Shown piece by piece: positions 2,488-61,999 of a stretch of 64,000 nt of DNA. A program made the position numbers and the translations under genes. Below the pieces are notes generated by a model. That model saw nothing but the letters and a program-made list of their open reading frames with translations. It had not been told where the DNA came from and ran no database searches. This DNA is from Staphylococcus phage SAC. Each line of letters starts with the position of its first letter. Position 1 is the first letter of the stretch. The stretch lies in sequence record OR234014.1; one strand, given 5' to 3'.

Positions 2488-2519
2488 GTTATTACCAATC
2501 CCTTCTTTAACTTAAATAC

Positions 2520-14514: not shown

Positions 14515-14536
14515 TAGTGTCCTCCTTTAGTACGTT

Positions 14537-16213: not shown

Positions 16214-16236
16214 ATCTTACCACCTCTTTATTGTTT

Positions 16237-42239: not shown

Positions 42240-42297
42240 TTTCTGTTTTTTATTATTTATACCATTTGTTAAAATATATAAGTATTATAATTGTATT

Positions 42298-43167: not shown

Positions 43168-43660
43168 ATATAACCTATCGTATTAGTTATGTATATTTAT
43201 TTAATAACAAGTTTACCTTACAAAATAAGAAAGGTTTATATGCAGAAGTAGAATACAAATTTTAATTATTTATATATTTTAACAATGTTTAAATATACAC
43301 GCTACTGTATATTCTCTAGTTATTTCTAGACACTACCTTTCGGTACGTGCGCAGACTATTTGTTATCCCTATTAGTATAGGGTGAGTATTTTTCTTCCAC
43401 CAATCACTTGTGGCTTTACTTCCGTCACCTATACGGAATAGTCGTTGAACGTGTTCCGTAGACCTTTCAGGTCTTTAGGACTTTCGATGCTATACACCCA
43501 TTGTACTTCTCCTTAGGATTTAACCTTAGAGTATCTAACTAATTTTTTCTGATTTCTCAACATTCAAGCCTAGTCTTTCGACTTACTTTGTAGTTTAGTT
43601 AGCTTTAGTAGTTTCATAGCAGTTAACACTCGGTACTTACAGATTGCTCTATAAGCAAGG
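43168..43660 (-). mobile_element. group I intron at the 3' end of the TMP ORF (ORF-less)
   Basis: Minus-strand R GUUCAACGACUAUUC (~43450) and S AACAAAUAGUCUGCGC (~43365), plus a P8-like hairpin ccac...gtgg. ~85-90% identical to the cores at 55860-56190 and 61680-61996. The TMP stop codon lies inside the conserved intron motif GTTAAC. Confidence 0.65.
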
Positions 43661-46616
43661 CAATTAGTATATAACTAATTATGTTACCTTTTTTATTTTT
43701 CACTGTCTCGTCTAATTTAGAAGGGTTATCTGGTGTGAAGAAATCTGTTATGCCACCCCATAGTTTACCTACAGGAGAGTCTTGGAATTTATTCTTACCA
43801 TCTTTATCTCCATTAGACCATAATTTCCAACCATCACTTGTCATAGAACCTTCCGCTGTTTTCGTAGCATAATCTCTTAAGCCATCTCCATAGCCTAAAT
43901 TTAACGGGTCTATAATACTTCCTATAGTATTACCAAATTTAGAAGAAGCTTCTTTAGTATCTCCTTGTATTAAAGAACTACCTATATCAAACGCCGATAG
44001 ACCTGCACCAATCCAACCTAGCTTACTTGTAAGACCACCTAGTTTACCAAGACCTCCTGCGTTAGCAGTAGGTGCTTGTGACATAAAACCTAAGTCAGAA
44101 CCTTTACCGCTAAATTTACCTTTAGCTTTACCAAAAGCTCCCTTACCTTTGTTCCATGCACCTTTACCTAGGTCTTTGGTTCTTCCCATATATTCACCAA
44201 AAGTAAAATCTCTTTTTCCAAAGGTATCAAATAAGGTTTTACCCATGCCTTTAGCAGTTTGTCCTGCTCCTTTTGCTTGGTCTTTAAATGGTCGGTCTCC
44301 ACCTCTAGGGTTATCACCTAGTATAGTGTCAGCTAAGTTTTTAAGTCCTCCAAAGCGTCCACCACCGTTAGGATTACCACCAGGTTTACCACCACCAGTC
44401 TTACCTGTTGAACCTCCTTTACGGTTATTAAACCAATCTTTTAGTCCTTTTTGACCTTTACCTAATAAAGAACCACCAGCCATCATGGCAGTAGATTTAG
44501 CTAAAGATGCTACAAAGGCAAGTACTGCTCCTGAAGCTAGGTATAAAGGAGCTGGCAAGCTTGCCATAGCACTATGAACATCTCTAATAGGTTGAGCTAA
44601 GTCATAAATATCCTCAGCTTTATCATCTGTCTTAGCTTTGTTATGGTCATTTCTACCTGCTTTAGACTCGGAATACTTATCCTTATTTTTATCTCCTGCT
44701 TTAGAGCCCTCTTGTTCCATGCTCTTAGCTTTACTAGCTAACTCTTCTTTAGATAGTTTACCTGAGGCGTAAAGATTGTACAACTCATCTGTTTGCTCTT
44801 GTGTTAAGTTAGCTCCCATGCTTTCAAAGCCTTTTTTAGCTATGGCTTGTTTTTCTTTTGTTGTACTTCCTATATTATTAGCTTGGTCAAATATATTAAC
44901 TAAGTTATTAGGGTCTGATATACCTTTATCCATTTGTGCTTGTAAGTCATGCATACCTTCTAATCCTTGGTACTTAGTACCCCATCCCATTGCTAATCTA
45001 GTATAAGAATTACCCATACCATTTTTAATACCTTGGTCAATACTACTTAAGGCTTGAGCTCCTTGTGCACCTTGTAGACCTTTACTACCTGTACCCGCTA
45101 CTTGAGCTTGTAGAGAAGTAAGATTAGACATTTCTCCTTTAGATAATGTTCTACCTTGTCCTGACTGCTCGGCAATAGTACTTAAAGCTCTTAATTGCTC
45201 GTCTTGTCTACCAACCATATCAGATTCACGTATACCACCTAAGAAAGCATCTTGCATAGCTTTCATATTATCTGAGTTTACGCCACCTGTATGCATAAGT
45301 TGTGACATGGATTGCTGATAAGCTTCTTGGTCTTGTATACCTAATGAACGACCACCTACAGCTAACTGTTTAGCTCCTTTATACGTATCTGCATCGCTTT
45401 TATGTCCTATAGAACTTTCATATGACGTAGCCATTTTTAGCATGTCAGTTGAATTATAACCAAGCTTATTATCTATTGACAAATCTCCATATGTATTTCT
45501 TACTGCGTCTATATCCATATTATCTGAATTTTGTCCTAATGATGTTACCATAGGTCTATTTGCCTCGGATAAGGAGGCACCTTTCATATACATACCACCT
45601 GCAAGAGCAGTTACTGCCATAGTAGCATGTGCACCAATAGATGGTAATCTATCTTGGAACAATTTACCCATTGTTCCTCGTTGCTGTTCTATCTCACGCT
45701 GAGCAAACTGTTTTTTAGCACTATTTTTATAGTAGTTGATTGACTTGTCTAATTCAGCACCTGTTTTTCTATAAACTTCAGAAAGCTTTTCACTTTCATC
45801 AATCATCATTTTAATAGAAGCTGATTGTTTTTTATAATCCTCAGAACTTATTTCACCACGAGCTCTTTTGCCTACTAAATCTTGTTGTTGTTGTCTATAA
45901 CCTCTATATCTATCTTGGTTTTCTTTTATTCTTCTATTGTTAGCTTCTCGTTGCTTTTCAAAAGTGTCTACTTTACCTAATTCAGAACGTACTCTAGCAC
46001 CTTGGTCATAGGACATTCTATTAGAGCCTTCAGACCTAGATATATGACCTCTAACCATATTACGATTAGCTCTTAGTTGCTTTGTGTACTCCTTAGCTGA
46101 ACTGGCATCTTTTACTAATTTATTATACTCTTCTGTAACTTGGTTCAGTGTTTTCATTTCTTTTATTCTGTTTGTTATATCTGAGTCTGAACCAATCTTT
46201 TGAGATGCTACTTTCTCTAGTTCTGTTTGTGTATTATTTAGTGTCTTATTAAGTTTACTATATACTTTCTCTACTTCAGGGTCAGGAGCTATACCCTTTG
46301 TAATATTATCTGTTTGTATGTCATTTAAAGCTTTCTTTAGGTCGTTTATATTCTTAGTTACATTCTGTGTAGAACTAATAGCCTCATCCATAGCTTTTGG
46401 TGATATTAAAGACTTATCACTTTGTTTATCCATAATGTTTTGTACAGATTTTACTTCTTTTGCTATTACTTTTAATTTCTCTAAGAAGTTTGTTAATGGT
46501 GCATCTATGTTTTTAGACTCTAACGCATCCATGTACATCTCTATAGCTTTTAAACTTTGTTCTAAGCTAGAACTATCACCAGTCAAGACCAACCTATAAT
46601 CGTCATTCATTGCCAA
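43623..46616 (-). CDS. tail tape measure protein, 5' exon (or complete gene)
   Basis: 997 aa. Long coiled-coil N-terminal half, Gly-rich repeats, and a hydrophobic segment (PAPLYLASGAVLAFVASL). The last ~8 residues are intron-encoded. Confidence 0.7.
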   Translation of the reverse strand: MAMNDDYRLVLTGDSSSLEQSLKAIEMYMDALESKNIDAPLTNFLEKLKVIAKEVKSVQNIMDKQSDKSLISPKAMDEAISSTQNVTKNINDLKKALNDIQTDNITKGIAPDPEVEKVYSKLNKTLNNTQTELEKVASQKIGSDSDITNRIKEMKTLNQVTEEYNKLVKDASSAKEYTKQLRANRNMVRGHISRSEGSNRMSYDQGARVRSELGKVDTFEKQREANNRRIKENQDRYRGYRQQQQDLVGKRARGEISSEDYKKQSASIKMMIDESEKLSEVYRKTGAELDKSINYYKNSAKKQFAQREIEQQRGTMGKLFQDRLPSIGAHATMAVTALAGGMYMKGASLSEANRPMVTSLGQNSDNMDIDAVRNTYGDLSIDNKLGYNSTDMLKMATSYESSIGHKSDADTYKGAKQLAVGGRSLGIQDQEAYQQSMSQLMHTGGVNSDNMKAMQDAFLGGIRESDMVGRQDEQLRALSTIAEQSGQGRTLSKGEMSNLTSLQAQVAGTGSKGLQGAQGAQALSSIDQGIKNGMGNSYTRLAMGWGTKYQGLEGMHDLQAQMDKGISDPNNLVNIFDQANNIGSTTKEKQAIAKKGFESMGANLTQEQTDELYNLYASGKLSKEELASKAKSMEQEGSKAGDKNKDKYSESKAGRNDHNKAKTDDKAEDIYDLAQPIRDVHSAMASLPAPLYLASGAVLAFVASLAKSTAMMAGGSLLGKGQKGLKDWFNNRKGGSTGKTGGGKPGGNPNGGGRFGGLKNLADTILGDNPRGGDRPFKDQAKGAGQTAKGMGKTLFDTFGKRDFTFGEYMGRTKDLGKGAWNKGKGAFGKAKGKFSGKGSDLGFMSQAPTANAGGLGKLGGLTSKLGWIGAGLSAFDIGSSLIQGDTKEASSKFGNTIGSIIDPLNLGYGDGLRDYATKTAEGSMTSDGWKLWSNGDKDGKNKFQDSPVGKLWGGITDFFTPDNPSKLDETVKNKKGNIISYILIALLIEQSVSTEC

Positions 46617-46669
46617 ACAGTATTCACCACCTAATCAAAAAATAAGGGTATTGGTGTTATACCATTACC

Positions 46670-47128
46670 CTACATGTACCAATCATCTACATCTTCTATT
46701 GCTTTGTTTATATCTTCTTGTGTTGTTTCTTTGTTATCAATACCTAAACTTTCATCAAGCTCTTTTTGTTTTTGTCTTATGTGTTCCATCATAGCTAAAT
46801 GTTGAGTTGTTAATCCCTCGGTTTCATCTTCTAACTCAGCTTCAACTCGTCTATCTCTTTCTATCTTTTCTTTCTCACTTAAACTTTTATCTACTTGTGT
46901 ATTTAAATCATCTAAGTCTAAGAAATCAGGAACAACATCAAATTCATCTGTCGGCGCTTCGAACCATGATGTGTCTACGTCTTCCGCTTTCATATCATAG
47001 TTTTTACCGTCTCTAGCTTCCATCATTTCTTTTGTATCTAAATTCATGTTAGCTATAATAAACTCTATTTGATAGTCATCTAAATCTTTAAAACGTTGTT
47101 CGGTAGGTAGCACATTAAACTCACGCAT
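46670..47128 (-). CDS. acidic tail assembly chaperone candidate (downstream frame)
   Basis: 152 aa, very acidic. Its frame is open from 4 codons before the stop of the upstream ORF, suggesting a possible programmed frameshift partner. Confidence 0.3.
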   Translation of the reverse strand: MREFNVLPTEQRFKDLDDYQIEFIIANMNLDTKEMMEARDGKNYDMKAEDVDTSWFEAPTDEFDVVPDFLDLDDLNTQVDKSLSEKEKIERDRRVEAELEDETEGLTTQHLAMMEHIRQKQKELDESLGIDNKETTQEDINKAIEDVDDWYM

Positions 47129-47219
47129 GATAGCCCATAAGTTTCTTGATAAAGGCTCTCTAGCTATATGTGAAAGTCCACCTAACCGTTCTATATCTTC
47201 ATTTAACTTCTTTACGTTA

Positions 47220-47648
47220 CTAGTAACGAAAGGACGTCATAAAGTCTAACCAATCATCCCACATAATAGCAAGTGGAGTTAGGTTATAAATCTCTTCAGG
47301 GTCTCTAAATTCTTTAGGTACTTCTACCCCTACTTCTTGTAGAGTAGCTAACATCTGATAAGCATTAATAACTTGGTCAGATTGATAAGCATCCATTCCA
47401 CCTAAGTATGCAGAACGTAAAGCCATGATATTACCTTGTTCTCTAGCATTAGGTAATCTAATTTTTACTTTGAATTTTAAATCTAATTCTTCAAAGTTGT
47501 ATCCTTTCTCCCATACATCATTAACACCTTTAATTACTTTGTTAATAACACGCTCTTTATCTTTTCGTTGCTGATATTTTAACTCATCAATTTCTTCAGG
47601 TGTCATATCTTTAATATCTTTTTGTTCTTTTTCCAATTCTTTATCCAT
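47220..47648 (-). CDS. tail assembly chaperone candidate
   Basis: 142 aa, between the tail tube/sheath genes and the TMP. Confidence 0.35.
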   Translation of the reverse strand: MDKELEKEQKDIKDMTPEEIDELKYQQRKDKERVINKVIKGVNDVWEKGYNFEELDLKFKVKIRLPNAREQGNIMALRSAYLGGMDAYQSDQVINAYQMLATLQEVGVEVPKEFRDPEEIYNLTPLAIMWDDWLDFMTSFRY

Positions 47649-47736
47649 CCTTTATTATTTTCTCATAATTAATATAACAGCTAACTTATGTTTTTTATAC
47701 ACATACAGTATAACATAATGTGGTTATAACTCCAAA

Positions 47737-48045
47737 TTACTTAACATATTCAGCTACTCTTTTTTCAATTTCTTGTAACCTTTGTTCAATTGTTTCACTA
47801 TTTTTAAGTAAGTAAATGTAGTAATCTTGAAGTGAGTCATAATATTCAAAATCAATCGTCAAAATCTCTTGACCCTCAAAATACTTTTTAGTGATTTTAC
47901 CTGCTTGTTCCGTTAAGGTTTTAAACTTGTCAAGAATTTGATTGATTGCAATAGCAGTTGTCTTACTTGTTAAATCTACATTCTGTGGGAATTTATGTAA
48001 CTCAATTTTCATTTCTTCATGGATAGCTCTTAATTTATTTGTCAT
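47737..48045 (-). CDS. hypothetical protein
   Basis: 102-aa ORF. Confidence 0.35.
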   Translation of the reverse strand: MTNKLRAIHEEMKIELHKFPQNVDLTSKTTAIAINQILDKFKTLTEQAGKITKKYFEGQEILTIDFEYYDSLQDYYIYLLKNSETIEQRLQEIEKRVAEYVK

Positions 48046-48101
48046 TTTTTATTCTCCTCTTTATTAATGTAACCTTAGTATATATTATGTATTTACTTAT
48101 G

Positions 48102-48551
48102 TCAATACTTTATTTTTAAATTTTTATCATAATAATCATTTAAATTTAATGTTTTGTGGTTATCTGTGACTCTGTTATAGTACATAGTTACAACTTCACC
48201 TGTTTCAACTTCTATAACTAAATATTGGTAAGATAATTTATTATTTACTTTTACTACATAAGGGTGTCTAACAACTACCCTACGTTGTATTTTGTTATTG
48301 TATAATGTTTCATTATATTCTATAATATCTAAGTTCTTATTATGTATATAATGAACAAACGCTTTAAAATTTACTGGTTTCTTACATTTACCTTTGAAGT
48401 GATTTGTTAACTTAAAGTAATTATTTTTATTATAAGCCTCTTTTAGTAAGTTCCTACATATAATTATTTCTTGATTAGTCATTTGTTTATAATGCTTCTT
48501 TACTTGCCTGTTTTTACTTGTTGTTCTTCTGCCTGAATAAAAAGTTTTCAC
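48102..48551 (-). CDS. hypothetical basic protein (149 aa), GTG start
   Basis: AAGGAG-N10-GTG. Lys/Asn/Tyr-rich. Lies downstream of the tail tube intron array and terminator. Confidence 0.3.
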   Translation of the reverse strand: MKTFYSGRRTTSKNRQVKKHYKQMTNQEIIICRNLLKEAYNKNNYFKLTNHFKGKCKKPVNFKAFVHYIHNKNLDIIEYNETLYNNKIQRRVVVRHPYVVKVNNKLSYQYLVIEVETGEVVTMYYNRVTDNHKTLNLNDYYDKNLKIKY

Positions 48552-48599
48552 AGTTCATCATCTCCTTATATAACTATAGTATTACAGTTATTTATAATT

Positions 48600-48726
48600 G
48601 TCAATACCTTTATGCTTATTTTTTCTAGAATATTTTGTTTTATCTTTTTTAATTCTTGTTGTTGGTTTAATTTTCCATGTTGCCCTTGAATTACTTACTT
48701 TACCTATTGTTTTCCTGTTTGTCATT
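48600..48726 (-). CDS. very small basic ORF (~41 aa), not in the ORF track
   Basis: ATG ~48726 preceded by GGAGGTG. Reads MTNRKTIGKVSNSRATWKIKPTTRIKKDKTKYSRKNKHKGI... Confidence 0.2.
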
Positions 48727-48781
48727 TAGTACACCTCCTTTTATTTTTAATTATAATACAGTACTTCTAATAAAACAAGTA

Positions 48782-48815
48782 TAAAAAAAGACCTAACTTT
48801 TATTGTTAGGTCTTA
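48782..48815 (-). terminator. strong rho-independent terminator at the end of the tail tube gene
   Basis: Minus strand reads agacctaacaataaaagttaggtct (perfect 9-bp stem) followed by T7. Confidence 0.7.
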
Positions 48816-48821
48816 ATACGA

Positions 48822-49189
48822 AATTTAAGTTCTAGCCTTATCTGATGCTGTCCTCTATACCCTATCTTTCGATATATTTTAAAGGGAGTAGACTATACCA
48901 TAATCTTAATGTGTAACTAAGACTCACTTATTATAGTCGTTGAAGCTTCCCACTCTCGTAGGCTTGCCTGCGTATCATCTATTTTACTGTACTTAGGGTT
49001 TAACCTTATACTATACTAGATATTTTTTCTGATTTCTCAACATTCAAGCTTACCCTTTCAGGTTACTTTGTAGTTATCTAGTCTTTAAGACTTTCACGCA
49101 ATTTAAAGTGTTTTCTATGCTTGTCACCAAACATAGCCTCTATTAGTTAAAGGTAGCTAAACTCAATTTCTTCTGTTACAATTTCATTT
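48822..49189 (-). mobile_element. group I intron (tail tube gene, downstream copy of a tandem pair)
   Basis: Minus-strand R GCUUCAACGACUAUAAU (~48940) and S GGUAUAGUCUACUC (~48895). Its P1-P6 region is related to the other introns but P8 is shorter. Confidence 0.6.
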
Positions 49190-49535
49190 GTCTGCCAAGT
49201 CTCGTTGTAGTTGTTTGCTGAACCGTTTATACCCTATCTTTCGATATATTTTAAAGGGACTAGACTATACCATAATCTTAATATGTAACTAAGACTTACC
49301 TATTATAGTCGTTGAACCTTCTCCATTTTACAGGAGCTTGGATGCTAATTACCAATTATGTAGTACTTAGGATTTAACCTTATACCATCTAACTAATTTT
49401 TTCTGATTTCTCAACATTCAAGCCTAGTCTTTCGACTTACTTTGTAGTTTAGTTAGCTTTACGGTGTTCTAGCAATTTAAGGTATTATTCAATGCACATC
49501 ACTGTACAAGGGGTCTATTTAGTTAAACCATGGTA
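49190..49535 (-). mobile_element. group I intron (tail tube gene, upstream copy of a tandem pair)
   Basis: Minus-strand R GGUUCAACGACUAUAAU (~49315) and S GGUAUAGUCUAGUC (~49275). Its 5' half is nearly identical to the TMP, IStron and portal intron 5' halves. Confidence 0.6.
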
Positions 49536-49853
49536 ACTAATAATAACTTGTTTCGTTAAGTTATCTACTACTAAGATATCAATAATATCTTTCTTAAGAA
49601 TTTCTTCACCAAGTGAAGCATATCCTAAATCTGCGAAGTTTTCTTTTTTCATACGTAAACGTTCTAGTGTAATTGTACCAGCATATTTTAAGTAAACATG
49701 CTCTTGTGGCATAATACTACCAATTTCGTATACACCAGTAGTTCCGTATTCACGTTGACCTTTAGCAGATTGTGCTCTTCCAACTGGTTTACCTTTTACC
49801 ATTAGCATAACGGTATTACCAGTATGGACAGACTGCTTAGCCTCTGAAGCCAT
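49515..49853 (-). CDS. tail tube protein, 5' exon (112 of ~140 aa)
   Basis: Immediately downstream of the sheath gene. The ORF ends inside the intron. Remaining short exons must lie between and after the two introns, with the last exon ending just before the terminator at ~48820. Confidence 0.55.
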   Translation of the reverse strand: MASEAKQSVHTGNTVMLMVKGKPVGRAQSAKGQREYGTTGVYEIGSIMPQEHVYLKYAGTITLERLRMKKENFADLGYASLGEEILKKDIIDILVVDNLTKQVIISYHGLTK

Positions 49854-49915
49854 ATTAATTCACTCTCCTATTAAATTTAATAGGAGTACCTAAACTAGGT
49901 ACTCCTTGTCCTAGT

Positions 49916-51676
49916 TTAGGCTCTTAATGTTTGTTGTTGGTATACCAAGCTAACAGAAATTTTCTTGAAGCTTCTGATAGGGTATACAACCATTGAGATT
50001 CTAGCTTCATTACCCTCGACAATAACTTGTACGTCTTCAGGTGGGAAGTCTTGAATTTCGTTATCTCGTTTCTTGCGTCCTAAGAATGACTGTACAAAGT
50101 CTTTGATAATTGAAGCACTTGTATTGATAGTACGAGTACCAATAAAGTTATTTTCAAGCTCAAGTTTTAACTCAGAACATAAGAAGTCATTTGCTTCCCC
50201 AACAGCCATTTCTGACTTAACAGGGTCATTTTTATCATTAAATGTCGTAACATCGTCTGTTAATCTAAAGAATGTATTAGCTCTATTACGAACATATTGT
50301 ACGGTGATAATACCGTTTTCATTTAACTCATCTAAGTCTAATGATTCATATAATTGGTCTACATTATTAATACGTAGTTGCTTAAAGGTAATAGACTCAC
50401 CTATAGCTAAACCACTTACCAAACCTCCGATAGCAGAAGCTACCATATAAGCTGGTACATGTAACTTACGACCATTGTCCATTGTGAATATACCTGAGTT
50501 AGCTACTAAAGCAACTCGTGGGCTAGATAATGATGATTGACGACCAAATAATTGTTCTTTCGTTTCATTAAATCCTCCACCTAGAATAGCACGCATAGGT
50601 TCACCTGCATCAGAACGTTCTTTAACAAAAGAAGCTACTTCTGCATGAACAGATTGTTTAGAGGATAGTGGTACCATGTAGTATCCACCTTCATGTGCAA
50701 ATTTTTCGATTTTATCCGCCCATGTAGCAGGAGGTTCACCATTTGTACCACCTGAAAGTTTTGTTAATTCAAAAGGTGTGATTTCTTGAATTGGGGACAC
50801 AGCTGTTACAGTAGCAGATTCTTCATGTGCGTCTACTTCTACGTTTTTAGGTGCTTGTTCAGATACTAATCGTTCAAATGAAACAAGTCCGTTATAGGCT
50901 GTTTGTTTCTCTAAATCACCAAATACTGCTTTTACATACTCAGCTTTATCCTTAATGTTAACATCTGTCATAGGGTCTAATAAGTAAGACTCTAAGTTCT
51001 TATCTCCAAAAGGTGATAACTTAGCTTCAAAATCAGGTAATTGGTTAATATCGTTAATGATGGCATTAGTAGTAGCGTAAGCTCCTCCTGTTAAGTCATA
51101 AGACTTAACTTCTGTGCTATTAGCTTTTAATACTAATCTTTTTGCTTTTTGTGTCTCTTTATCGTGCTCTACAGAAAAAGTAGCTGTACTTTCACTACCT
51201 TTATATTTGATAGTGAAGATATTACCAATATTATCATATGTTTCATTAAATCTATCATCTTGGAAGATTAAATGTAAACGTAATGAATTACTGATTGTAT
51301 TTTTTTCTAATCCTACTTGAATGTTGTTAGCTACGTTACCATAAATCTGTGAAGTAACTTTCAATCCGCCTACTTCAGCTGTAGCTGGTTTAGCATCCTC
51401 TACACGCATAGCAAAAATCTTACCTGCTGTGTATTGTGGATTAGAACCCCAAGCTAATTCAATTGCATCAAGTAATTCACCTGAGCGGAATAGTCTTTTA
51501 GCTTGTGCGTAGTTTCTTAATTCATATACGGTATCAGGTTTACCACCTTCAGCTTGTCCAATTAAACATAAAATCTTTTCACTGGAGCTAGCTGATTTAC
51601 CGATACCTGTACTGTCTACATTAATGACTGCATGTGGACGAGTGACAGGTCTTCGTGGAAACGGTTCAACTGCCAT
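49916..51676 (-). CDS. tail sheath protein
   Basis: 586 aa. Size and position match the tail sheath of K/Twort-like phages. Confidence 0.75.
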   Translation of the reverse strand: MAVEPFPRRPVTRPHAVINVDSTGIGKSASSSEKILCLIGQAEGGKPDTVYELRNYAQAKRLFRSGELLDAIELAWGSNPQYTAGKIFAMRVEDAKPATAEVGGLKVTSQIYGNVANNIQVGLEKNTISNSLRLHLIFQDDRFNETYDNIGNIFTIKYKGSESTATFSVEHDKETQKAKRLVLKANSTEVKSYDLTGGAYATTNAIINDINQLPDFEAKLSPFGDKNLESYLLDPMTDVNIKDKAEYVKAVFGDLEKQTAYNGLVSFERLVSEQAPKNVEVDAHEESATVTAVSPIQEITPFELTKLSGGTNGEPPATWADKIEKFAHEGGYYMVPLSSKQSVHAEVASFVKERSDAGEPMRAILGGGFNETKEQLFGRQSSLSSPRVALVANSGIFTMDNGRKLHVPAYMVASAIGGLVSGLAIGESITFKQLRINNVDQLYESLDLDELNENGIITVQYVRNRANTFFRLTDDVTTFNDKNDPVKSEMAVGEANDFLCSELKLELENNFIGTRTINTSASIIKDFVQSFLGRKKRDNEIQDFPPEDVQVIVEGNEARISMVVYPIRSFKKISVSLVYQQQTLRA

Positions 51677-51698
51677 GTATAATTCTCCTATCTATATA

Positions 51699-52741: not shown

Positions 52742-52759
52742 CCTACTTCCATAACCTTT

Positions 52760-54255: not shown

Positions 54256-54475
54256 TTAATATCTCCTTCCTACTATATGCCTATCATATTGGAGCCAAAG
54301 TAAGATTTTAACCCAGCTAATAGCTCTTTTATATCTTCATTAATTTGTAGTATTTGAGCACTTGCTCCACCATACATAGCAGATTGTGTAGTACCTATTG
54401 TTTCTGTAATACCATCTACATCTAGAGTTTTGTTTGCTATTCCTGCACCGATAATGAGATTACCATATGTTAATT

Positions 54476-56192
54476 AAATTAACTTCCTTTGTAAAATAAA
54501 AGGCATTATACATTCGGGTTATGGAACCCTACTAAAAGCAAACATATTATTGGTTTTGTTCTTTTAACCATTGGGAATTATGGTAGTTTTTTAAATTAAT
54601 ACTTGCATTTATATCCCTATCTTCTTCATATCCACAAGCATTACATTTAAAGACTTTATCACCTAACTGTAATTTTAAAGCATTTCTTTTTCTTTCTCCG
54701 CAATTACTGCATATTTGTGATGATGGATAATAAGTACTAGCTACTGTAAATTTTATACCTCTATCTTCACATTTATATTGTAATTGCTGTCTAATCATAT
54801 AGAAATTAGAAAACTGTATTTGTTTTCTTTTTTGTCCTGTATATCCTTTGTCTTTTATTAAATCACGAACTCTTATATCCTCTACAATAATCTCTTTAGG
54901 ATACTTTTCAACAATTTCTTTTGTTATTTCATGTACATGATTTTTAAGGATATTTGACATTTTTCTATAAACTTTAGCTATCTTATTTTCTAGCTTTAAA
55001 ACATTATTTGTTTTGGTGTGGTTAATATCATATTTATTACTTAATCTTTTCTGTAGGTCAGCTAATTTTTTTTCTAACCTTTTCATTTTCTTGGAATAAA
55101 TAATATTACCATATATTTTTCTGTTAGAACAAATTACGTGTTTTTTACCACTACCTAAGTCTATACCTATGACTTCGTTAGTATTATCCTTTTCTTTCTT
55201 GTATTGATTATCTACTTCAATTGAAAAAGATATATACCAATATTTACCATCATAGTAACATTTAGGGTTTAAAGGTTTAATGCTTTCATTCTCTAGTACT
55301 GATTTATTATTTTTATATGTACCATTAGAAATTCTTAAGTAACCTAATTTTTCAACTTTAACATGTTTTTCTTTGTTAAAGTGCATTCGGTCATATCTAA
55401 TAGGAAACCTCTTAGATTCCCTTTTCTTAGACTTAAATTTAGGTTTTCTAATTTCATGATTATGATATTTTATTAATGTTTCTCTTAAGTCATCTATTTT
55501 ACCAACTAAGGTTTTTCTAGATACTTCATTTAAGAAACTATACTTATCATCATTCTTTATTTCTTTTAGTATAGAAATCATATTTTTATGGTCTATATAT
55601 TTACCGTTATCGAGAGCTTTCCAATATCTTTCTAGCATATAATTATAAATAAATCTAGAATGGTTTACATGTTTCCACATTAACTCTTCTTGTTCTTGGG
55701 TAGGGTTTACTTTTAGTGTTATACCTCTATAAAATTTATTTTCCGTTTTTTTCATTTACTTTCACCACCTTATATATTATATCTATAATATAACATATAC
55801 TTGGGGTAATTTCAATAGGAAGTTTTCATTTAATTAACATTGTTTCCTTACTTACGCTACTAAATAAGTCTAGGTCAATTCCTAGCACTCCTTTTCAAGA
55901 CGTGTGCAGACTATTTGTTATCCCTATTAGTATAGGGTAAAGATTTTTCTTCTCCCAATCACTTGGAGCTTTACTTCTGTCGTCTATACAGAATAGTCGT
56001 TGAACGTATTCCTTATCTATTGACTTAGGACTTTCGATGCTAAACTTCCATTGCTCTTCTCCTTAGGATTTAACCTTAGAGTATCTAACTAATTTTTTCT
56101 GATTTCTCAACATTCAAGCTTAGTCTTTCGACTTACTTTGTAGTTTAGTTAGTTTTAGGATTTCTTAGCAGTTAACCTTTGAAAATGTGCAA
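54476..56192 (-). mobile_element. IStron-like chimera: group I intron core plus IS605-family tnpB plus hairpin 3' module
   Basis: 5' core (55860-56190) has R GUUCAACGACUAUUCUG and S AACAAAUAGUCUGCAC. A P1 pairing is plausible between exon UGUGU and intron GCACA. The TnpB ORF lies in the 3' part, followed by the hairpin module GGGUUCCAUAACCC. Confidence 0.65.
54547..55755 (-). CDS. tnpB: TnpB (IS605 OrfB-family RuvC-like nuclease)
   Basis: 402 aa. RuvC-I (VIGIDLGSGKK), RuvC-II (IIVEDIRV), zinc finger (CSNCGERK...CNACGYEE) and RuvC-III (DRDINASINL), with the typical N-terminal YRGITLKVNPTQEQEE...RFIYNY. Confidence 0.85.
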   Translation of the reverse strand: MKKTENKFYRGITLKVNPTQEQEELMWKHVNHSRFIYNYMLERYWKALDNGKYIDHKNMISILKEIKNDDKYSFLNEVSRKTLVGKIDDLRETLIKYHNHEIRKPKFKSKKRESKRFPIRYDRMHFNKEKHVKVEKLGYLRISNGTYKNNKSVLENESIKPLNPKCYYDGKYWYISFSIEVDNQYKKEKDNTNEVIGIDLGSGKKHVICSNRKIYGNIIYSKKMKRLEKKLADLQKRLSNKYDINHTKTNNVLKLENKIAKVYRKMSNILKNHVHEITKEIVEKYPKEIIVEDIRVRDLIKDKGYTGQKRKQIQFSNFYMIRQQLQYKCEDRGIKFTVASTYYPSSQICSNCGERKRNALKLQLGDKVFKCNACGYEEDRDINASINLKNYHNSQWLKEQNQ

Positions 56193-56193
56193 C

Positions 56194-56943
56194 TTACGCT
56201 ACACACAGGGTAATATCATCGTAACCCCATATTTGGTAAATTTCTTTTAGTGCATATTTAATAACTAATTGCTCTAATTCTGGTGGTACTTCCCATGGTT
56301 TAGTTCTACCTGCTCTTTGTCTAGGTAACATACCACTAATATAATCTAATGTAATCATTTGAGGTGCAAAAGTTGCTCTACTTGGCGGGTACATTCCTGC
56401 TAATTGAGGATATCCACTGAATACAGCATCGTAAGACATAGATTGACCCGTCTGCATTAAAGCTGTAGGGAATAACTGTACGTGACCTGCTAAATGCTCC
56501 ACTTTCCACCAGTTAGCTGGATAATCATACATAGGTCTACCATTAAATTGTAGTTGTAAATTTTCTACCTGTAATATAGGTTTTTTATATGCGTGTACAA
56601 ACATATAACTATTAAATTCTGTTTCGTAGTAATCTCTCATTTCATGTTGTAAGTCAGGTAAAATAGATATATCTAAAGCTCTTTCCGCTTTACCTATAGC
56701 TCTTTCTAATATATGATTATAAAAATCATCACCCATAGGTTGTCCTGTATCGGGGTTTTGTACTGTTATACCAAACATATAGGCTTTCACAGCATCTGCT
56801 GACCAACCATAATCAGCTAGAGTAATATTATCTAATTCTCTTTTATCTATATGTTTTGGGTTTCCAGATGGGTGATAAGGATACTCATATGATAAAGAGC
56901 TTTCGTAAGGGTCTAAACTACCACCAAACATACTGTTTACCAT
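56194..56943 (-). CDS. virion structural protein, 5' exon
   Basis: 249 aa. The ORF terminates at the intron boundary (stop ~18 nt from the conserved GTTAAC, as in the portal gene), implying continuation in a short 3' exon beyond the IStron. Confidence 0.45.
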   Translation of the reverse strand: MVNSMFGGSLDPYESSLSYEYPYHPSGNPKHIDKRELDNITLADYGWSADAVKAYMFGITVQNPDTGQPMGDDFYNHILERAIGKAERALDISILPDLQHEMRDYYETEFNSYMFVHAYKKPILQVENLQLQFNGRPMYDYPANWWKVEHLAGHVQLFPTALMQTGQSMSYDAVFSGYPQLAGMYPPSRATFAPQMITLDYISGMLPRQRAGRTKPWEVPPELEQLVIKYALKEIYQIWGYDDITLCVA

Positions 56944-56952
56944 TCTATCAAC

Positions 56953-57186
56953 CTACTTATCTTCTTTTTTAGTTGTTTTTTTAGTTGGTTTCTTCTCTTC
57001 TTTTTCTTCCTTAGGTTTTACTTCTTTCTTTGTTATTTTCTTGTCTTCCATATGTGTAAAACCTGGTAAATTAGCAAAATCTTTTTCTTGTTTAGCAGTT
57101 AGTCCTTTAACTACGCCTTTATCATCTACTTCTACTTGACCATGTACAGTAGCCATTTTAATATTTTTTAATTTATAAGTTAACAT
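56953..57186 (-). CDS. small Lys-rich protein
   Basis: 77 aa with a C-terminal KPKEEKEEKKPTKKTTKKEDK tail, downstream of the MCP gene. Confidence 0.35.
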   Translation of the reverse strand: MLTYKLKNIKMATVHGQVEVDDKGVVKGLTAKQEKDFANLPGFTHMEDKKITKKEVKPKEEKEEKKPTKKTTKKEDK

Positions 57187-57289
57187 TGATTTTTAAATTC
57201 CTTTCTTGTATACTATAAGTAGTAATAAAAAAGGAGCAACCCTTAGGTATACTCCTTATTCTATTGTATTCAATTTTTAATTGTATTTA

Positions 57290-58681
57290 CTATTTTAATG
57301 CAAGGTAACTTACGTTTTTAATACGAGCCCATTTTTTAGGAGCACGTAACGCTAAAGCACCATACCATAATACTGCAAATGTAATACTAGCATTAATTTG
57401 AGCTAATGGTAATTTCATCATTGGTAATAACTCGAACAAGTGTAATACTTGTGGTGACATTTCACCAACGAATACGTCTGCTGTTTCAGGTAATGTTTCG
57501 TTTTTATCAACGAATACTAAAGAACCATCTTCTTGTGCATCTTTAAGTGCTACACGTTTAATTAAGTAGTACATACCTGTTTCTTTACCTTGACGGTAAA
57601 TAGATACGAATTGTGGGCTTTGTTGGTACATAGAGTTAACAGTAATCTTTAATTCTACTCCATCTGTAGCATTTGTTACTGTAGCAACTTGTGCTTCTGA
57701 TGGTGCTGATTCAGCTTCATCAGAGTGAACAACTACTTTATAAGATAAACCTGCACGGTCTTCTTCTTTAGTAAATTTACCTTTTTGGTTTGTTTTTACT
57801 TCAGCTTTTACTGTAGCTGGTTGTGGTGCATTTGGTTGTGGGATTAAAGTTTCATCTAAGATTAATTCATTTTCCATTACAGTAGAACCATGTAATCTAA
57901 TGAATCCACGAGATGAATAGAATCCGTTAACACTGAAACCAGTATTTACATTACCACTATTGTCTTGCATTAATTGCATTTGTCGACCTAAGATATTAGT
58001 AACAAAGTCAGAATGTACACCGATAGGCATGTAAGCATCTGTAGCTGTACCAAAACCTTTACCGATTTTAACTGAAGCTAAGTTTAATAATTTCTCATCT
58101 AAGTGAGCACCTTTAGCGTCGATAACGTTATCAGCATCAATTAATTTAGCTAGTCCATCAAATTCTAGTCCTTCTCCACCAACTTCAGAAGTTAATGAAG
58201 CATCACCATAGAATGAAGCCCATTCAATTGTTTTAGCAACAACTGAGATAGCATCTTCAGTCAAGATTTGACCAGGGTCAGCAATGTTATTTACTAAACT
58301 AGATGCCAATGACATATTTTTAGTATCAGAAATGTATTTCATTGTAACGGTCTTTTGACGGATATTAGGGTCTGAAACTGACGCTACTCCGATTTCACGT
58401 ACAAAACGAGAATGACCTACTTTACCGTGACGTAAGAAAACATCATATTTAATTACTGTTGATTCAGCTGGTCTACGTGCAACATCACGGTAAAATACTA
58501 AATCATTATTTCCCCATGTAAGCATAGTGATTTGGTCGTTTAAAATTTCACGACGTAAAGCACCTGCATCCACTTGTGTTTCAGGAGTGATACCATATCC
58601 AGTTTGGAAGGATTTCGATAATTTTTCTTGTAATTCATCAGCAACTGCATGTTGCTTTTTTGAAAGTTCATTTTGGTTCAT
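57290..58681 (-). CDS. major capsid protein
   Basis: 463 aa with a strong RBS (AAAGGTGATATATATAAATG). Position after protease/scaffold and size match the K/Twort-like MCP. The fold cannot be verified by eye. Confidence 0.65.
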   Translation of the reverse strand: MNQNELSKKQHAVADELQEKLSKSFQTGYGITPETQVDAGALRREILNDQITMLTWGNNDLVFYRDVARRPAESTVIKYDVFLRHGKVGHSRFVREIGVASVSDPNIRQKTVTMKYISDTKNMSLASSLVNNIADPGQILTEDAISVVAKTIEWASFYGDASLTSEVGGEGLEFDGLAKLIDADNVIDAKGAHLDEKLLNLASVKIGKGFGTATDAYMPIGVHSDFVTNILGRQMQLMQDNSGNVNTGFSVNGFYSSRGFIRLHGSTVMENELILDETLIPQPNAPQPATVKAEVKTNQKGKFTKEEDRAGLSYKVVVHSDEAESAPSEAQVATVTNATDGVELKITVNSMYQQSPQFVSIYRQGKETGMYYLIKRVALKDAQEDGSLVFVDKNETLPETADVFVGEMSPQVLHLFELLPMMKLPLAQINASITFAVLWYGALALRAPKKWARIKNVSYLALK

Positions 58682-58765
58682 TTATATATATCACCTTTCA
58701 TATATGCTCTTTTTTTTTATTGTTTTATTTTACACACTATAATATAACACAACTTTGTTTCTTAA

Positions 58766-59716
58766 TTAAAGATTAGCAAATTCTTTTACAATATTAAAGT
58801 CTTTTTCACTTGCTTGCTCTGGATTGTTGCGGATATTTAAGTAAGCTTGATAAGCATTCAATACTTCTGAACGATTCGTATGTGGGTTTTGAGATTTTTC
58901 TTTATAGGTACTCATGAATTTTTCACGGGCTTCTACAGATAAGTCTCTACTTTCTTCTTTAACTTCTACTTCTTGTTCTTCTTTATCTTCTGTAGTTTCT
59001 GCTTGTTCTTCTGTTTGTACTGATTTAGCTACATAACCAACTACATCTTGTTCATTCGAAGTGTTATTAGTCGTTACGGATTTTTCTACTGCTTCTTCTT
59101 TATCTTCTTGGTTGCTCTCAACTGATTTAGAAACTTCTTCATTAGAATTAATTTTATCAGTTAAAGCTTGAATAGATTTAGTTACTTCTTCTAAATCTGA
59201 TTTAGTCACATATTGTTCATTTTCTTTTTTAATATCTTGGAATGATTTCAAGATAGTACGGAAACCATCTACAATATCTTTATCAGAAATAGATTTAGAT
59301 GTTTTTTCTTCCTCTTCTTCATCTTTTTCTTCTTTTTTGTCTTTTTTATTTTTTCGTTTCTCGTTGTCTTTGTCTTCTGTTTTAGTATCTTTTTTATCTA
59401 CAGGGTCTTTCGACTCCTTAGCTGACTTAGATACTTCTTCTTCTAGATTTTCTTCTTGTTCATGTGCTTCTTTAGCATCTTCTTCAGTAACCTTTGCAGG
59501 TTCTTGTGGTTCTTCTTTAGCTTCTTCTACTTGCTCTTCTGTAGCTTCTACTTCATTTTTAATTTCTTCTTTTTCTTCTGTTTTAGTGTCTTCTGTTTTA
59601 GTGTCTTCTGTTTTATCTTCTTTTACTTCTTCTTTAGACTCTTCTACAGATTTTGATACTTCTTCTTTGTCTAAGTTATCATATTCTTGTAGAATATTTT
59701 GTAATTCCGTAGGCAT
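58766..59716 (-). CDS. acidic scaffold-like protein with internal TEDTK repeats
   Basis: 316 aa, extremely Glu/Lys/Asp-rich, located between the prohead protease and the MCP. Confidence 0.45.
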   Translation of the reverse strand: MPTELQNILQEYDNLDKEEVSKSVEESKEEVKEDKTEDTKTEDTKTEEKEEIKNEVEATEEQVEEAKEEPQEPAKVTEEDAKEAHEQEENLEEEVSKSAKESKDPVDKKDTKTEDKDNEKRKNKKDKKEEKDEEEEEKTSKSISDKDIVDGFRTILKSFQDIKKENEQYVTKSDLEEVTKSIQALTDKINSNEEVSKSVESNQEDKEEAVEKSVTTNNTSNEQDVVGYVAKSVQTEEQAETTEDKEEQEVEVKEESRDLSVEAREKFMSTYKEKSQNPHTNRSEVLNAYQAYLNIRNNPEQASEKDFNIVKEFANL

Positions 59717-59729
59717 ATAATATAATCCC

Positions 59730-60521
59730 CTATTCTAAATTTTTTTTATTAATACTCATAACTGCTATCTCAGCATCTTTTCTTGATAGTCCTTTGGCTA
59801 ATTGTAATGTAATAACTGATTCTTCATAACCCATATTATTAGATTTAGTTAAGTCCTCTACTACATTATTCCAAATATCATTATACTCTTTAACATCTTT
59901 AATTTTTGTTACATAGGTTAAATTAGTAATAGAGCTTGCTAATGACTCTTTACGTAAGGCTCCTGCATCTACTTGTGTGTCTGGTGTTGTTTCCGTTCCA
60001 GTAAGGAATGATTTAACAAAACTCTCCCATGTAGCTTCAGGATTAGCTGGGTTTTTTACTAGTGCTACCCCTGTAATCATAAGTTCATCAACAATTCTAT
60101 TGTCATTTATGTTACGTTTCTTAACAGCGCCTTCTATAGAAAACCCTAAACGTCTACCACTACCTGACTTTTCTAGTTTCTCAGCTAGGTCTAACATTTT
60201 TATAACATTTTCATCATCTTTCCATAGCTTAGCTTCTATAAATAAACCTTTTTCTAAATCAACATAACAGTTATCTGTAGGTATACCTACTACATTATCT
60301 TGTTGATGTTCGTAGTTAATATATCCATTTTTTTTAAAGTATTCTATATCAATACCTTTTGGATTTATAATGTCATTCTGCAAATCAACAGCTGGTGTGG
60401 AAGCCCAACCAGATACGATAGAATATTTATTTGTATCATCTTCCGTATCTATGGATTTCTTTAAGTCCATAGGAACAAAAGCATTAAATTTCATTTCTTC
60501 CAAAGTGATTATACACCTCAC
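59730..60521 (-). CDS. prohead protease candidate
   Basis: 263 aa directly downstream of the portal gene. Assigned from synteny. Confidence 0.45.
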   Translation of the reverse strand: MRCIITLEEMKFNAFVPMDLKKSIDTEDDTNKYSIVSGWASTPAVDLQNDIINPKGIDIEYFKKNGYINYEHQQDNVVGIPTDNCYVDLEKGLFIEAKLWKDDENVIKMLDLAEKLEKSGSGRRLGFSIEGAVKKRNINDNRIVDELMITGVALVKNPANPEATWESFVKSFLTGTETTPDTQVDAGALRKESLASSITNLTYVTKIKDVKEYNDIWNNVVEDLTKSNNMGYEESVITLQLAKGLSRKDAEIAVMSINKKNLE

Positions 60522-60670
60522 TTAATTGTTATTTTATATGTACATACATAATATAACAAAAAGTATATCATCAACATTATTCATTACTACACACATAGTA
60601 TAACATAGTATAAATGTAGCTCCAAATTAAAAAATAACAACCTAAGTATTAATTAGGTTGCTAATATTAT

Positions 60671-61378
60671 CTACATAAAGTCGGAAGATTTCTCACCTTT
60701 TCTTCCTTGTCCTTTATTTGATGTTTGTGTTCTATATACGTTATCATCACCTTTTAACTGATTATCTGTTCCTACATCTTGGTTAGTTGTTTCTTGTTTA
60801 CTATCATCTGTAGGCTCATCAGTTTGTGGTTGTGTATAACTCATAAGTAATTGAAGTCTTTCTTTTTGTTTAGTATCTAGGTATTGGTCTTTTTGTATTT
60901 CTTGTGCTGTACTTTGTAAAAATGCTGAGTCAAGAATTACATCTCCACCATCTATTGGTTTCAATCCCTGTTCTTCTCTTGCTTCATTTACAGTTTTATA
61001 TACTTGTACTTCTTTTTGTAAAATACTAAGCTTATCTAACTCAGACTTAGTATCTCCTCCAACGAATTGGAAAGTATACTTATCACCAAATTCAGATATA
61101 ATGTGTCTGTTAATTAATTCTTCTATAAATCTTAATAGAGGTTGTAAACCTTTATTCATAGATTGTTGTTGCTTCTTAGCAGGGTCTGACTCATTCAATG
61201 TAGAACCGCCTTTTGACCCTGTGGCTCCTCCTCCTCTATTAGGGAATCCTATTTCAGAAGGGTCTATACCATACAAAGCAGAAATAATATTGATTAAAAA
61301 GTTTAACCATTTCTCAAATTGCATATCATTTGCTGTTGGTGTCATATTAACAAACTTAACATCATCAGCCATCATCAC
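60671..61378 (-). CDS. portal protein, 3' exon
   Basis: The frame is open upstream through ...ILDYEVPV-MMADDVKFVNM to ~61393. It continues the 62000-62992 ORF across the intron. Confidence 0.6.
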   Translation of the reverse strand: MMMADDVKFVNMTPTANDMQFEKWLNFLINIISALYGIDPSEIGFPNRGGGATGSKGGSTLNESDPAKKQQQSMNKGLQPLLRFIEELINRHIISEFGDKYTFQFVGGDTKSELDKLSILQKEVQVYKTVNEAREEQGLKPIDGGDVILDSAFLQSTAQEIQKDQYLDTKQKERLQLLMSYTQPQTDEPTDDSKQETTNQDVGTDNQLKGDDNVYRTQTSNKGQGRKGEKSSDFM

Positions 61379-61392
61379 GGGGACTTCGTAAT

Positions 61393-61996
61393 CTAAAATT
61401 TATAAAAAATTTTATTCCTTTTTCAACGTATCCCTTTTTGAGTACCTTCATCATTACTAGTTACTTTTATATACTCTACTGAGGTTTGTATGATACTCTA
61501 AAGGCGTTAATTCGGGTTTACGGAACCCTACATATCATGTTTACTGTTTTATTTAGTTAAAACATGATATGGTTTAAGTATATCATAGAAAAGATTACTT
61601 GTCAACTAGTAAAGGAATAATTTTTTTTATAAACCTTAGTTTTATTTATTTACAAACGCTACTTTGTAAACCTGTGTCATTTCACATGCTCTACCTTTCA
61701 GTACGAGACTAGACTATTTGTTATCCCTATTGTGTAGGGTAAGGATTTTTCTTCTCCCAATAGCTTGGAGCTTTACTCCCGTCTTGTAACGGGATAGTCG
61801 TTGAACGTATTCCATAGACCTTTCAGTTCTTTAGGACTTTCGATGCTAAACAACCATTGTTCTTCGTCTTAGGATTTAACCTTAACGTATCTCAATATCT
61901 TTTTTCTACTTTCGTAACATTCAAGCCTACCCTTTCGGGTTACTTTGTAGTGTATTGAGCTTTAGGTGTTCTTAGCAGTTAACCCTTCATCTATAC
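61393..61996 (-). mobile_element. group I intron in the portal gene (ORF-less) with IStron-like 3' hairpin module
   Basis: Core (61680-61996) has R GUUCAACGACUAUCCCG and S AACAAAUAGUCUAGUC. It shows compensatory P8 changes relative to the TMP copy. The 3' region contains GGGUUCCGUAAACCCGAAUUAACGCCUUU at 61495-61527, homologous to the module after tnpB. Confidence 0.65.
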
Positions 61997-61999
61997 AAA

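Follow-up and report, generated by a model that had tools for sequence, protein, structure and literature searches.

The window analyzed here, a 64,000-nucleotide (nt) stretch of Staphylococcus phage SAC (sequence record OR234014.1), very probably contains seven group I introns: one each in the genes for ribonucleotide reductase (RNR) alpha, a helicase, the tape-measure protein (TMP)/tail lysin, a gp171-like virion protein, and the portal protein, and two in the gene for the tail tube. The TMP, gp171, and portal introns and both tube introns belong to one IA2-type family, the ribozyme of the IS607-type ("group B") IStrons. The presence of introns largely redescribes a known trait of Twort-like phages. 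What is new is that the "transposase" insertions in Silviavirus virion genes can be assigned to the IS607-type IStron family, that a TnpB gene and a guide-RNA scaffold lie in different introns, and that the TMP intron has a putative dual 3′-end architecture. The window is 99.8 to 99.9% identical to KX532239 (Staphylococcus phage StAP1), and we use the name StAP1 for the window's own copy in all sequence comparisons. StAP1 is a lytic Staphylococcus myovirus of the lineage Silviavirus, Twortvirinae, Herelleviridae. The minus strand is the coding strand for all genes considered.

Detection of the introns and placement of splice junctions

Whole-window Rfam scans, at the gathering threshold and at E ≤ 5, returned only the helicase intron and a RAGATH-18 motif. 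The remaining six introns emerged only when regions of 300 to 950 nt were scanned; since speed filters had masked them, the negative result for the whole window does not mean absence. Over all scans, Intron_gpI matches covered the full model for all seven introns, at 24.8 to 91 bits. A search with a family HMM (nhmmer) gave exactly five members, namely TMP, gp171, portal, and tube introns 1 and 2, with E values of 4e-102 to 2.5e-22, and a scan for the P7 signature (YAACGACTA ... WATAGTC) gave exactly seven loci in the window. A repeat search picked out a five-copy family at 43.3 to 43.6, 48.9 to 49.1, 49.3 to 49.5, 55.9 to 56.2, and 61.7 to 62.0 kb. Neither the family HMM nor the P7-signature scan of the window yielded an eighth intron. 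Hence, we count seven, whereas a first-pass annotation of the window had proposed at least eight. An intron does exist at every place named in that annotation; its coordinates for the RNR and helicase introns were exact, and its other boundaries were 6 to 38 nt off.

We placed the junctions by reading the sequence for a terminal G (omega-G) and the correct exon phase, guided by tblastn with the intron-less proteins of phage K, which locates each split. All seven introns have a G directly before an in-phase 3′ exon. A terminal U in the 5′ exon, as expected for the P1 U-G pair, is seen at the RNR and helicase introns and at both tube introns. Given the omega-G and the correct phase, the final exon base is G, followed by an intron U, at TMP and gp171; this is a documented exception of group B IStrons (PMC4227781). 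The portal exon probably ends in C. All spliced products are in frame, with lengths that are multiples of three, and they match the phage K proteins (tube, 142 amino acids [aa]; gp171, 302 aa; portal, 561 versus 563 aa). The predicted protein junctions read SWQ/VPVMM in portal, IWG/NLIIG in gp171, YHGC/SANN and FSYL/TASDK in the tube, and KKG/INDK or KKG/INNKK in TMP, depending on the 3′ exon. The PHROG and Pfam profiles are broken at the same points as the tblastn alignments. As the first-pass annotation had held, the portal, helicase, RNR, tube, and TMP proteins need rebuilding by splicing, and many apparent ends of open reading frames (ORFs) are intron read-through, the tails QSVSTEC, (K)FCPL, and KNLHL being intron encoded.

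A covarying core shared across phage genera

To define the common fold, we used an alignment of nine family members: the TMP, gp171, and portal introns of StAP1, the Romulus portal element, and copies from OPT-SC01, S2G3, Alsa_3, BE07, and Enterococcus phage EF1TV. These span Silviavirus, Sepunavirus, Alsa-like, other staphylococcal, and Enterococcus phages. The consensus fold has 86 pairs in the helix order P1-P2-P3-P4-P5(extended)-P6-P7-P7.1-P7.2-P3′-P8-P7′-P9; 97.1% of cells are paired, and 51 pairs are changed on both sides. The covariation score was 0.53, compared with 0.17 for shuffled alignments (0 of 500 reached the observed score) and no more than 0.093 for slid controls. The sequences GUUCAACGACUA ... 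AAUAGUCU, which are the J6/7-P7 and J8/7-P7′ consensus, are invariant across the family, and the complete group I conserved core (P3-P8, the P3/P7 pseudoknot, J6/7-P7, and J8/7-P7′) is present. Rfam and covariation thus uphold their reading as group I introns whose RNA structure is conserved.

Over the ~305 nt from P3 to P9, core identity is 84.5% for TMP and gp171, 80.7% for TMP and portal, and 78.9% for gp171 and portal. The range of 79 to 85% is lower than the ~85 to 90% over ~330 nt given in the first-pass annotation, although the compensatory stem changes described there are real: ccac/gtgg versus ctcc/ggag lies in P7.2 and ccgt/acgg versus ctgt/acag in P7.1. The core has DNA-level relatives in 164 phage records. 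Among them are two Clostridium botulinum phages with group B IStrons (CbISt3 and CbISt4), c-st and D-1873; it is these IStron copies that the core DNA resembles.

An IS607-type insertion signature

In group B IStrons the last base of the 5′ exon is G and the first base of the intron is U (Tourasse 2014, PMC4227781), and CboIStron follows a TGGG/GG target rule (Zedaveinyte 2023, PMC10690162). We found a 5′ exon ending in GG, an intron starting with U, and an intron end of UGG at four loci: gp171, TMP, portal site A of Romulus, and the SEP1 TMP gene. With a slash marking each junction, these read TGGGG/UUAC...AUAUGG/U for gp171, AAAGG/UAAC...UUAUGG/U for TMP, GGCGG/UAAC...UCAUGG/U for Romulus portal A, and AGAGG/UAAC...CUAUGG/U for SEP1 TMP. 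Since the exon ends in GG and the intron starts with U and ends in UGG, we concluded that the insertion signature is of the IS607 serine-recombinase type. A GG-ending target (AGGG, TGGG, or GAGG) is also found in phage S2G3 (TTAGGG/), and portal site B of StAP1 (CTGGC/) does not conform. The 3′ terminus is CGG in known group B IStrons and differs here, being UGG at TMP, gp171, and Romulus portal A, and ACG at portal B; the GG core dinucleotide is retained in three of the four 3′ ends.

The architecture agrees as well. Like BcISt1 and CbISt/CboIStron (PMC4227781, PMC10690162), the StAP1 elements combine an IA2 ribozyme at the 5′ end with a downstream TnpB (ORF B). The arrangement of ribozyme and then insertion sequence (IS) ORF within one spliced unit is complete in gp171, and the TMP and portal introns are ORF-less derivatives. 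CbISt/CboIStron likewise insert after a GG-ending site, start with U, and include ORF-less derivatives (PMC4227781, PMC10690162). At TMP, a long AU-rich inverted repeat would return the 3′ end to the core, as in group B IStrons (PMC4227781, PMC10690162); the 5′/3′ repeat duplexes have energies of -26 to -33 kcal/mol in three genera, well beyond those of shuffled controls. Unlike the IStrons of C. botulinum, those of StAP1 reside in a strictly lytic myovirus and target virion genes. Unlike known group B IStrons, the StAP1 element lacks TnpA, and the TMP copy encloses a host exon module rather than transposon genes. A further oddity relative to group B IStrons is that the TnpB-bearing copy has no detectable RAGATH-18, whereas a TnpB-less copy in another gene has one.

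Some of these insertions have been described in other terms. The passages of PMC7497331 on split genes, citing Vandersteegen 2013, report split terminase, portal, helicase, RNR, repair, and polymerase genes in Silviavirus, together with an IS605 OrfB "transposase" within the portal region, also for Romulus/Remus and KSAP7/KSAP11. Those passages do not give TMP, tail tube, or gp171 as split in the Romulus/Remus/KSAP phages, nor do they describe the portal "transposase" as an IStron. Outside these genomes, a family intron followed by a "transposase" interrupts the SbcD-like nuclease gene of S2G3 (PV037055, positions 64689 to 65790) after the TTAGGG target; this is another phage IStron, in a nonstructural gene.

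The gp171 IStron encodes an apparently intact TnpB

The group B IStron in the gp171-like virion gene spans positions 54463 to 56224 on the minus strand (nhmmer, E = 6e-95). Its ribozyme (55873 to 56217) is at the 5′ end of the element and is followed by a TnpB ORF (54547 to 55755; Pfam TnpB domains) and a short 3′ tail to AUAUGG. The 5′ exon ends in TGGGG, and the 3′ splice site is at 54463. By tblastn, the phage K gp171 homologue is split at residue 240. In St1.CM the site is empty and the gene runs uninterrupted through TGGGG/AAATCTC. The first-pass annotation had called the element at 54.5 to 56.2 kb an IStron, and the succession of ribozyme and TnpB within one spliced unit bears this out.

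TnpB of the gp171 IStron is 402 aa long and has helix-turn-helix (HTH), OrfB, and zinc-ribbon domains. The D/E/D residues of RuvC (GIDLG, VED, and DRD) and the CxxC pairs of the zinc finger are intact, and the best match in the Protein Data Bank (PDB) is 8IAZ (E = 3e-42). Judging from these residues, TnpB is apparently an intact RNA-guided nuclease. We found no TnpA (ORF A, a serine recombinase) in the gp171 element or elsewhere in the window; the element holds TnpB only. Known IStrons include forms with ORF B only or with a deleted ORF A. In StAP1 and Stau2, all that remains of the guide-RNA scaffold in the tail of the gp171 IStron is its 5′ flanking stem together with the outer CCUUU/AAAGG stem.

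The portal mini-IStron carries an orphan guide-RNA scaffold

The portal gene contains a TnpB-less mini-IStron at site B (61387 to 62022, ±3 nt, minus strand; nhmmer, E = 3e-94). The portal profile is split there, and the phage K portal protein breaks at residues 325/323 by tblastn. Site B is empty in SAPYZU_15, Romulus, and Stau2, where the sequence reads TGGCAG/GTGCCT. We set aside a junction reading WQI/P: intron-less alleles have WQ/VP, and the homologous Romulus 3′ end favors GGC/AAG, a shift of 1 to 3 nt being possible.

RAGATH-18 is the scaffold core of the guide RNA (reRNA) of IS607 TnpB (PMC11061315). A RAGATH-18 motif (61415 to 61504, minus strand; Rfam RF03064, 60.6 bits versus a gathering score of 44.9) stands 28 nt upstream of the 3′ splice site of the portal intron. 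There is no TnpB gene in the portal element, and the sole TnpB in the window is 5.6 kb away, inside a different intron; the motif is therefore not placed directly downstream of TnpB, abutting the transposon end, as a TnpB guide RNA would be. In the portal IStron of Romulus, RAGATH-18 gave no match even at E ≤ 10. We concluded that the portal copy is a deletion derivative that has no ORF and keeps the RAGATH-18 scaffold beside its 3′ splice site. The scaffold, the group B insertion signature, and the two 3′ exons of TMP described below had all been overlooked in the first-pass annotation.

Like the IS607 TnpB guide RNAs of Ren 2024 (PMC11061315), the portal intron has RAGATH-18 with a homologous 5′ flanking stem. 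Unlike those systems, it has no TnpB in cis. The distance from RAGATH-18 to the splice site or guide start is 28 nt here, compared with a 64-nt 3′ flank in ISFba1, and the portal flank CTGGC differs from the reported target-adjacent motifs (TAMs) AGGAG, GAGGG, and TGGG (PMC11061315). As a weaker possibility, the portal mini-IStron might supply its orphan RAGATH-18 guide in trans to TnpB of the gp171 IStron. TnpB might then cut the intron-less portal alleles of coinfecting phages, and the two introns together might form a split, RNA-guided homing system.

Distribution and age of the family

All of the ~46 matching Silviavirus records carry the TMP intron, and none of the Silviavirus records searched contained an intron-less TMP allele. 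Sepunavirus (BE07, SEP1) and Alsa-like phages have this intron at the identical site. The TMP intron is therefore old. The other elements vary. No insertion is present at the gp171 site of St1.CM; KSAP7, EW41, and Romulus have shorter elements there, and StAP1 and Stau2 have the full IStron. At portal site A (window positions 62127 to 62138), 117 nt upstream of site B, Romulus, SAPYZU_15, and Stau2 have a full TnpB IStron whose ribozyme is 72 to 77% identical to the StAP1 copies. Since these site A phages lack the StAP1 site B element, the portal gene has been hit at two sites by diverged relatives. Between the StAP1 gp171 IStron and the Romulus/Stau2 portal IStron, TnpB identity is only 40%, indicating that these are distinct lineages and not fresh copies.

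The TMP intron is followed by two candidate 3′ exons

Up to its proximal 3′ splice site, the TMP/tail-lysin intron spans positions 43130 to 43686 on the minus strand (nhmmer, E = 4e-102; Rfam, 24.8 bits, E = 3e-4, below threshold). The ribozyme is of the IStron-type IA2 class (core, ~43317 to 43668); no transposase ORF accompanies it, all transposon genes having been lost from this copy. The 5′ exon terminates with AAAAGG, and the intron reads UAAC...UUAUGG. The split falls at 947/952 of the phrog_1047 profile and, by tblastn, at residue 1052 of the phage K protein.

Two modules follow on the minus strand. The first, which we call v1 (42298 to 43129), is a glucosaminidase-type C-terminal module (Pfam Glucosaminidase; phrog_1047 positions 952 to 1240) and has 23% identity to the phage K TMP C terminus. 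The second, v2 (41415 to 42261), is a Phage_lysozyme2-type module (Pfam PF18013, E = 2e-31) with 65% identity to the same C terminus; by tblastn, phage K residues 1058 to 1351 align to positions 42263 to 41418. Both modules start where the intron site falls in the colinear phage K protein, and both are in phase with exon 1. No good Shine-Dalgarno sequence precedes v1, and none precedes the first ATG of v2 (42239). The spliced product would have 1253 or 1258 codons. Exon 1 and v2 are colinear in Kayviruses and Fi4S2, and the v1 type is the colinear TMP C terminus in Listeria P100-like and Bacillus herelleviruses. Silviavirus, Sepunavirus, and Alsa-like phages all keep exon 1, intron, v1, and v2 in this order, and Sepunavirus v1 has no in-frame start near the splice site.

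A second copy of the 3′-terminal segment of the intron, UAGAAUACAA...CUUAUAUAUUUUAACAAAUGG, lies at 42262 to 42297 (minus strand), and its last base, 42262, is a candidate distal omega-G. The motif TATATnTTTAAC..AT(T)GG is found before both v1 and v2 in StAP1, BE07, and Alsa_3, which represent three genera. Just after P9.x, the 5′ inverted-repeat segment ACAUUGUUAAAAUAUAUAAA (43268 to 43288, minus strand) can pair upstream of either 3′ splice site: the repeat (43288 to 43268) and the sequence downstream of it are complementary to ~40 to 60 nt upstream of both candidate sites. In StAP1, the duplex energies are -31.7 kcal/mol (proximal) and -25.8 kcal/mol (distal), compared with -16.6 and -12.9 kcal/mol for shuffled sequences, and 0 of 300 shuffles reached the observed values. 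The duplexes of BE07 and Alsa_3 have energies of -22.6 to -28.9 kcal/mol, reached by at most 1 of 200 shuffles. The second helix of the distal pairing shows compensatory changes between genera, UUUGUAUUCUA with UAGAAUACAA in StAP1 and UUUUAUUCCA with UGGAAUAAAA in Alsa_3. A copy of the segment before each in-phase module suggests alternative 3′ splice sites.

The predicted proximal junction, exon 1 AAAAAAGG to v1 UAUUAAUGAU (for SEP1, UUUAGAGG to UAAGAAGAAGGG), is very likely. The candidate distal junction, exon 1 AAAAAAGG to v2 UAUAAAUAAU (v2 starting UAUAAAUAAUAAA; for SEP1, UUUAGAGG to CAUACUAGGAGA), is plausible. The same TMP ribozyme, with the same 5′ inverted repeat, would dock either copy of the 3′ segment. 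Proximal docking would join exon 1 to v1; distal docking would remove a 1,425-nt intron containing v1 and join exon 1 to v2.

Two observations concern the start of v1. In the Romulus record, promoters are predicted shortly before v1, within the AU-rich 3′ portion of the TMP intron, and StAP1 has an in-frame ATG at 43167, 12 codons before the proximal splice site. With these promoters and this ATG upstream, v1 might also be a free-standing protein.

The tail tube gene has two introns and very small exons

Tube intron 1 (49224 to 49525, minus strand) scored 37.8 bits with Rfam (E = 6e-8) and had an nhmmer E value of 1e-34; tube intron 2 (48852 to 49149, minus strand) scored 50.7 bits, with an nhmmer E value of 2.5e-22. 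Between them lies the 74-nt exon 2 (49150 to 49223), and the 27-nt exon 3 (48825 to 48851) comes after intron 2. By tblastn, the phage K tube protein splits at residues 109/111 (intron 1) and 134/135 (intron 2). The tube introns share only their 5′ halves (P1 to P6) with the IStron-type family; their 3′ halves are of a different type and, in the repeat search, are 95% identical to each other.

The classic precedent, as cited in PMC11878797 and PMC5526547, is Twort orf142, a tail tube gene with three group I introns and exon skipping (Landthaler and Shub 1999). As orf142 appears in those citing papers, it resembles the 142-aa tail tube gene of StAP1 in being cut by several short group I introns with very small exons between them, and it sets a precedent for alternative splicing by phage group I introns. 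Unlike orf142, with its three introns, the StAP1 gene has two, with 5′ halves of the IStron-type family. In the Silviavirus phage phiRNIID, the tail tube gene has three tandem Rfam-typical group I introns (95 to 104 bits); it also holds a 311-aa "intron encoded nuclease" and a first intron of the StAP1 type.

The RNR alpha and helicase introns and other features of the window

The RNR alpha and helicase introns are ordinary phage introns. The former (5264 to 6102, minus strand; Rfam Intron_gpI, 63.7 bits in a short-region scan) has its ribozyme core at 5828 to 6112 and encodes a GIY-YIG homing endonuclease (5308 to 5790; Pfam GIY-YIG and I-TevI_DNA-bd). Both exons match Ribonuc_red_lgC, and splicing joins NLC/SEI. 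The intron of the UvsW-like helicase gene (20879 to 21125, minus strand; Intron_gpI, 91 bits at 20916 to 21135) separates exons matching UvsW_N and ResIII/Helicase_C, and splicing rebuilds NAG/KT, the Walker A motif.

The RNR small-subunit ORF (6865 to 8202, minus strand) has an N-terminal ATP-cone domain (PF03477 and PF00268); the ATP-cone is commoner on the RNR large subunit. At the left edge (1 to 2511, minus strand), an ORF of at least 837 codons, probably DNA polymerase, runs off the window, which explains why this region looks poor in ORFs. A tandem repeat with an 18-nt period (9-nt spacing according to the repeat tool) extends from 63853 to the right edge at 64000. Translated by eye on the minus strand it reads roughly PIEPEK, and it is probably part of a gene leaving the window. 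Two 59-nt copies that are 80% identical (14535 to 14593 and 16235 to 16293) each include a hairpin rich in GC, AACCCTTAACA...TGTCAAGGGTT, with a run of T after it. They resemble repeated terminator or promoter-terminator modules between early genes.

Discussion

We propose that each intron would fold into a group I core and leave the mRNA, restoring an essential protein. Several points weigh against this proposal or parts of it. Excision is deduced from structure and exon phase, and its experimental demonstration comes from relatives only. Three of the five family members score under the Rfam gathering threshold. The portal junction (GGC/A ... ACG/A) is off the GG/UGG rule and is uncertain by up to 3 nt. 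A search for RAGATH-18 downstream of the StAP1 TnpB, in the gp171 tail, gave no match even at E ≤ 10, and since the window lacks TnpA, transposition to new sites cannot be autonomous. If the insertions were instead inert remnants of transposons or of miniature inverted-repeat transposable elements (MITEs), truncated or split proteins would be made without splicing, much as GenBank records annotate the pieces as separate coding sequences (CDSs) plus a "transposase." We regard this as highly improbable: portal, tail tube, and tape measure are each an essential protein made as a single chain, every downstream piece is in phase and lacks a start context of its own, and the insertions carry a complete, covariation-supported group I core. 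Moreover, tube exon 3, at just 8 codons, could not be expressed alone. A different question is whether the similar cores reflect recent copying within the genome to new structural-gene targets, as the first-pass annotation had proposed. The three cores are 79 to 85% identical, including the peripheral P7.1 and P7.2, the gp171 and portal elements are polymorphic among Silviaviruses, and the tube introns have a 95% identical 3′ half. However, a divergence of 15 to 21% is not recent when flanking genes are 97 to 100% identical among Silviaviruses, the TMP intron is a fixed feature of the genus that Sepunavirus also has at the same position, the TnpB proteins of different elements are only 40% identical, and there is no TnpA to move the elements. 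We therefore consider recent copying unlikely; judging from these comparisons, the StAP1 copies are not recent copies of each other. What stands of the earlier claim is mobility at the population level, which the gp171 and portal polymorphisms support. Since presence and absence differ among Silviavirus genomes, such elements would still move or be lost in populations, probably via recombination or homing during coinfection.

The main rival to distal TMP splicing is independent translation of v2. Only the proximal site would then be used, giving exon 1 plus v1; v2 would be a separate gene, and the repeated 3′ segment would be a leftover of recombination of the v1 cassette. The existing records lean this way. 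Phage SEP1 has the same TMP intron at the same site, and its RefSeq record (NC_041928) gives gp028, "tail associated lysin," as a two-piece join of exon 1 and v1 and treats v2 as an independent gene, without recognizing the second copy of the 3′ splice segment; the Romulus record has three separate CDSs for the TMP pieces. In BE07 a weak AAGG stands 5 nt before the v2 ATG, and the Alsa_3 frame that leads from the distal site breaks within a poly-A run. We had considered Alsa_3 as a test of the distal frame, but with this break and with v2 annotated in two pieces it is uninformative. On the other side, v2 of StAP1 lacks a Shine-Dalgarno sequence whereas neighboring genes have strong ones, and both StAP1 and BE07 have an open, in-phase frame between the distal G and the first v2 ATG. 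The ~40-nt segment before v2 is conserved in three genera, its pairing with the 5′ repeat being kept via compensatory changes, and v2 begins exactly at the intron-site homologue of the colinear phage K TMP. Having weighed these points, we give independent translation of v2 a substantial probability, somewhat short of even. Distal splicing is plausible, its probability lying between slightly below even and somewhat above. That the TMP of Silviavirus, and also of Sepunavirus and Alsa-like phages, is alternatively spliced by a single group I intron may be true with a probability only just under even.

Silviavirus phages are candidates for phage therapy. Their GenBank records misstate the proteome, since the portal, tube, gp171, and TMP proteins are fragmented and the IStron nuclease is called a "transposase"; the junctions mapped here permit correct joined CDSs. 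If distal TMP splicing is true, virions would carry tape-measure proteins with two different cell wall hydrolases, and the intron would be a joint for swapping enzyme modules. Alternative splicing by a bacterial group I intron, whether regulated or stochastic, would then give two functional protein isoforms, which would be rare. IStrons with TnpB and a guide scaffold lie inside the virion genes of strictly lytic phages and vary between close relatives. Silviaviruses thus offer a tractable setting in which to ask whether, in phage coinfection, TnpB works as an RNA-guided homing endonuclease.

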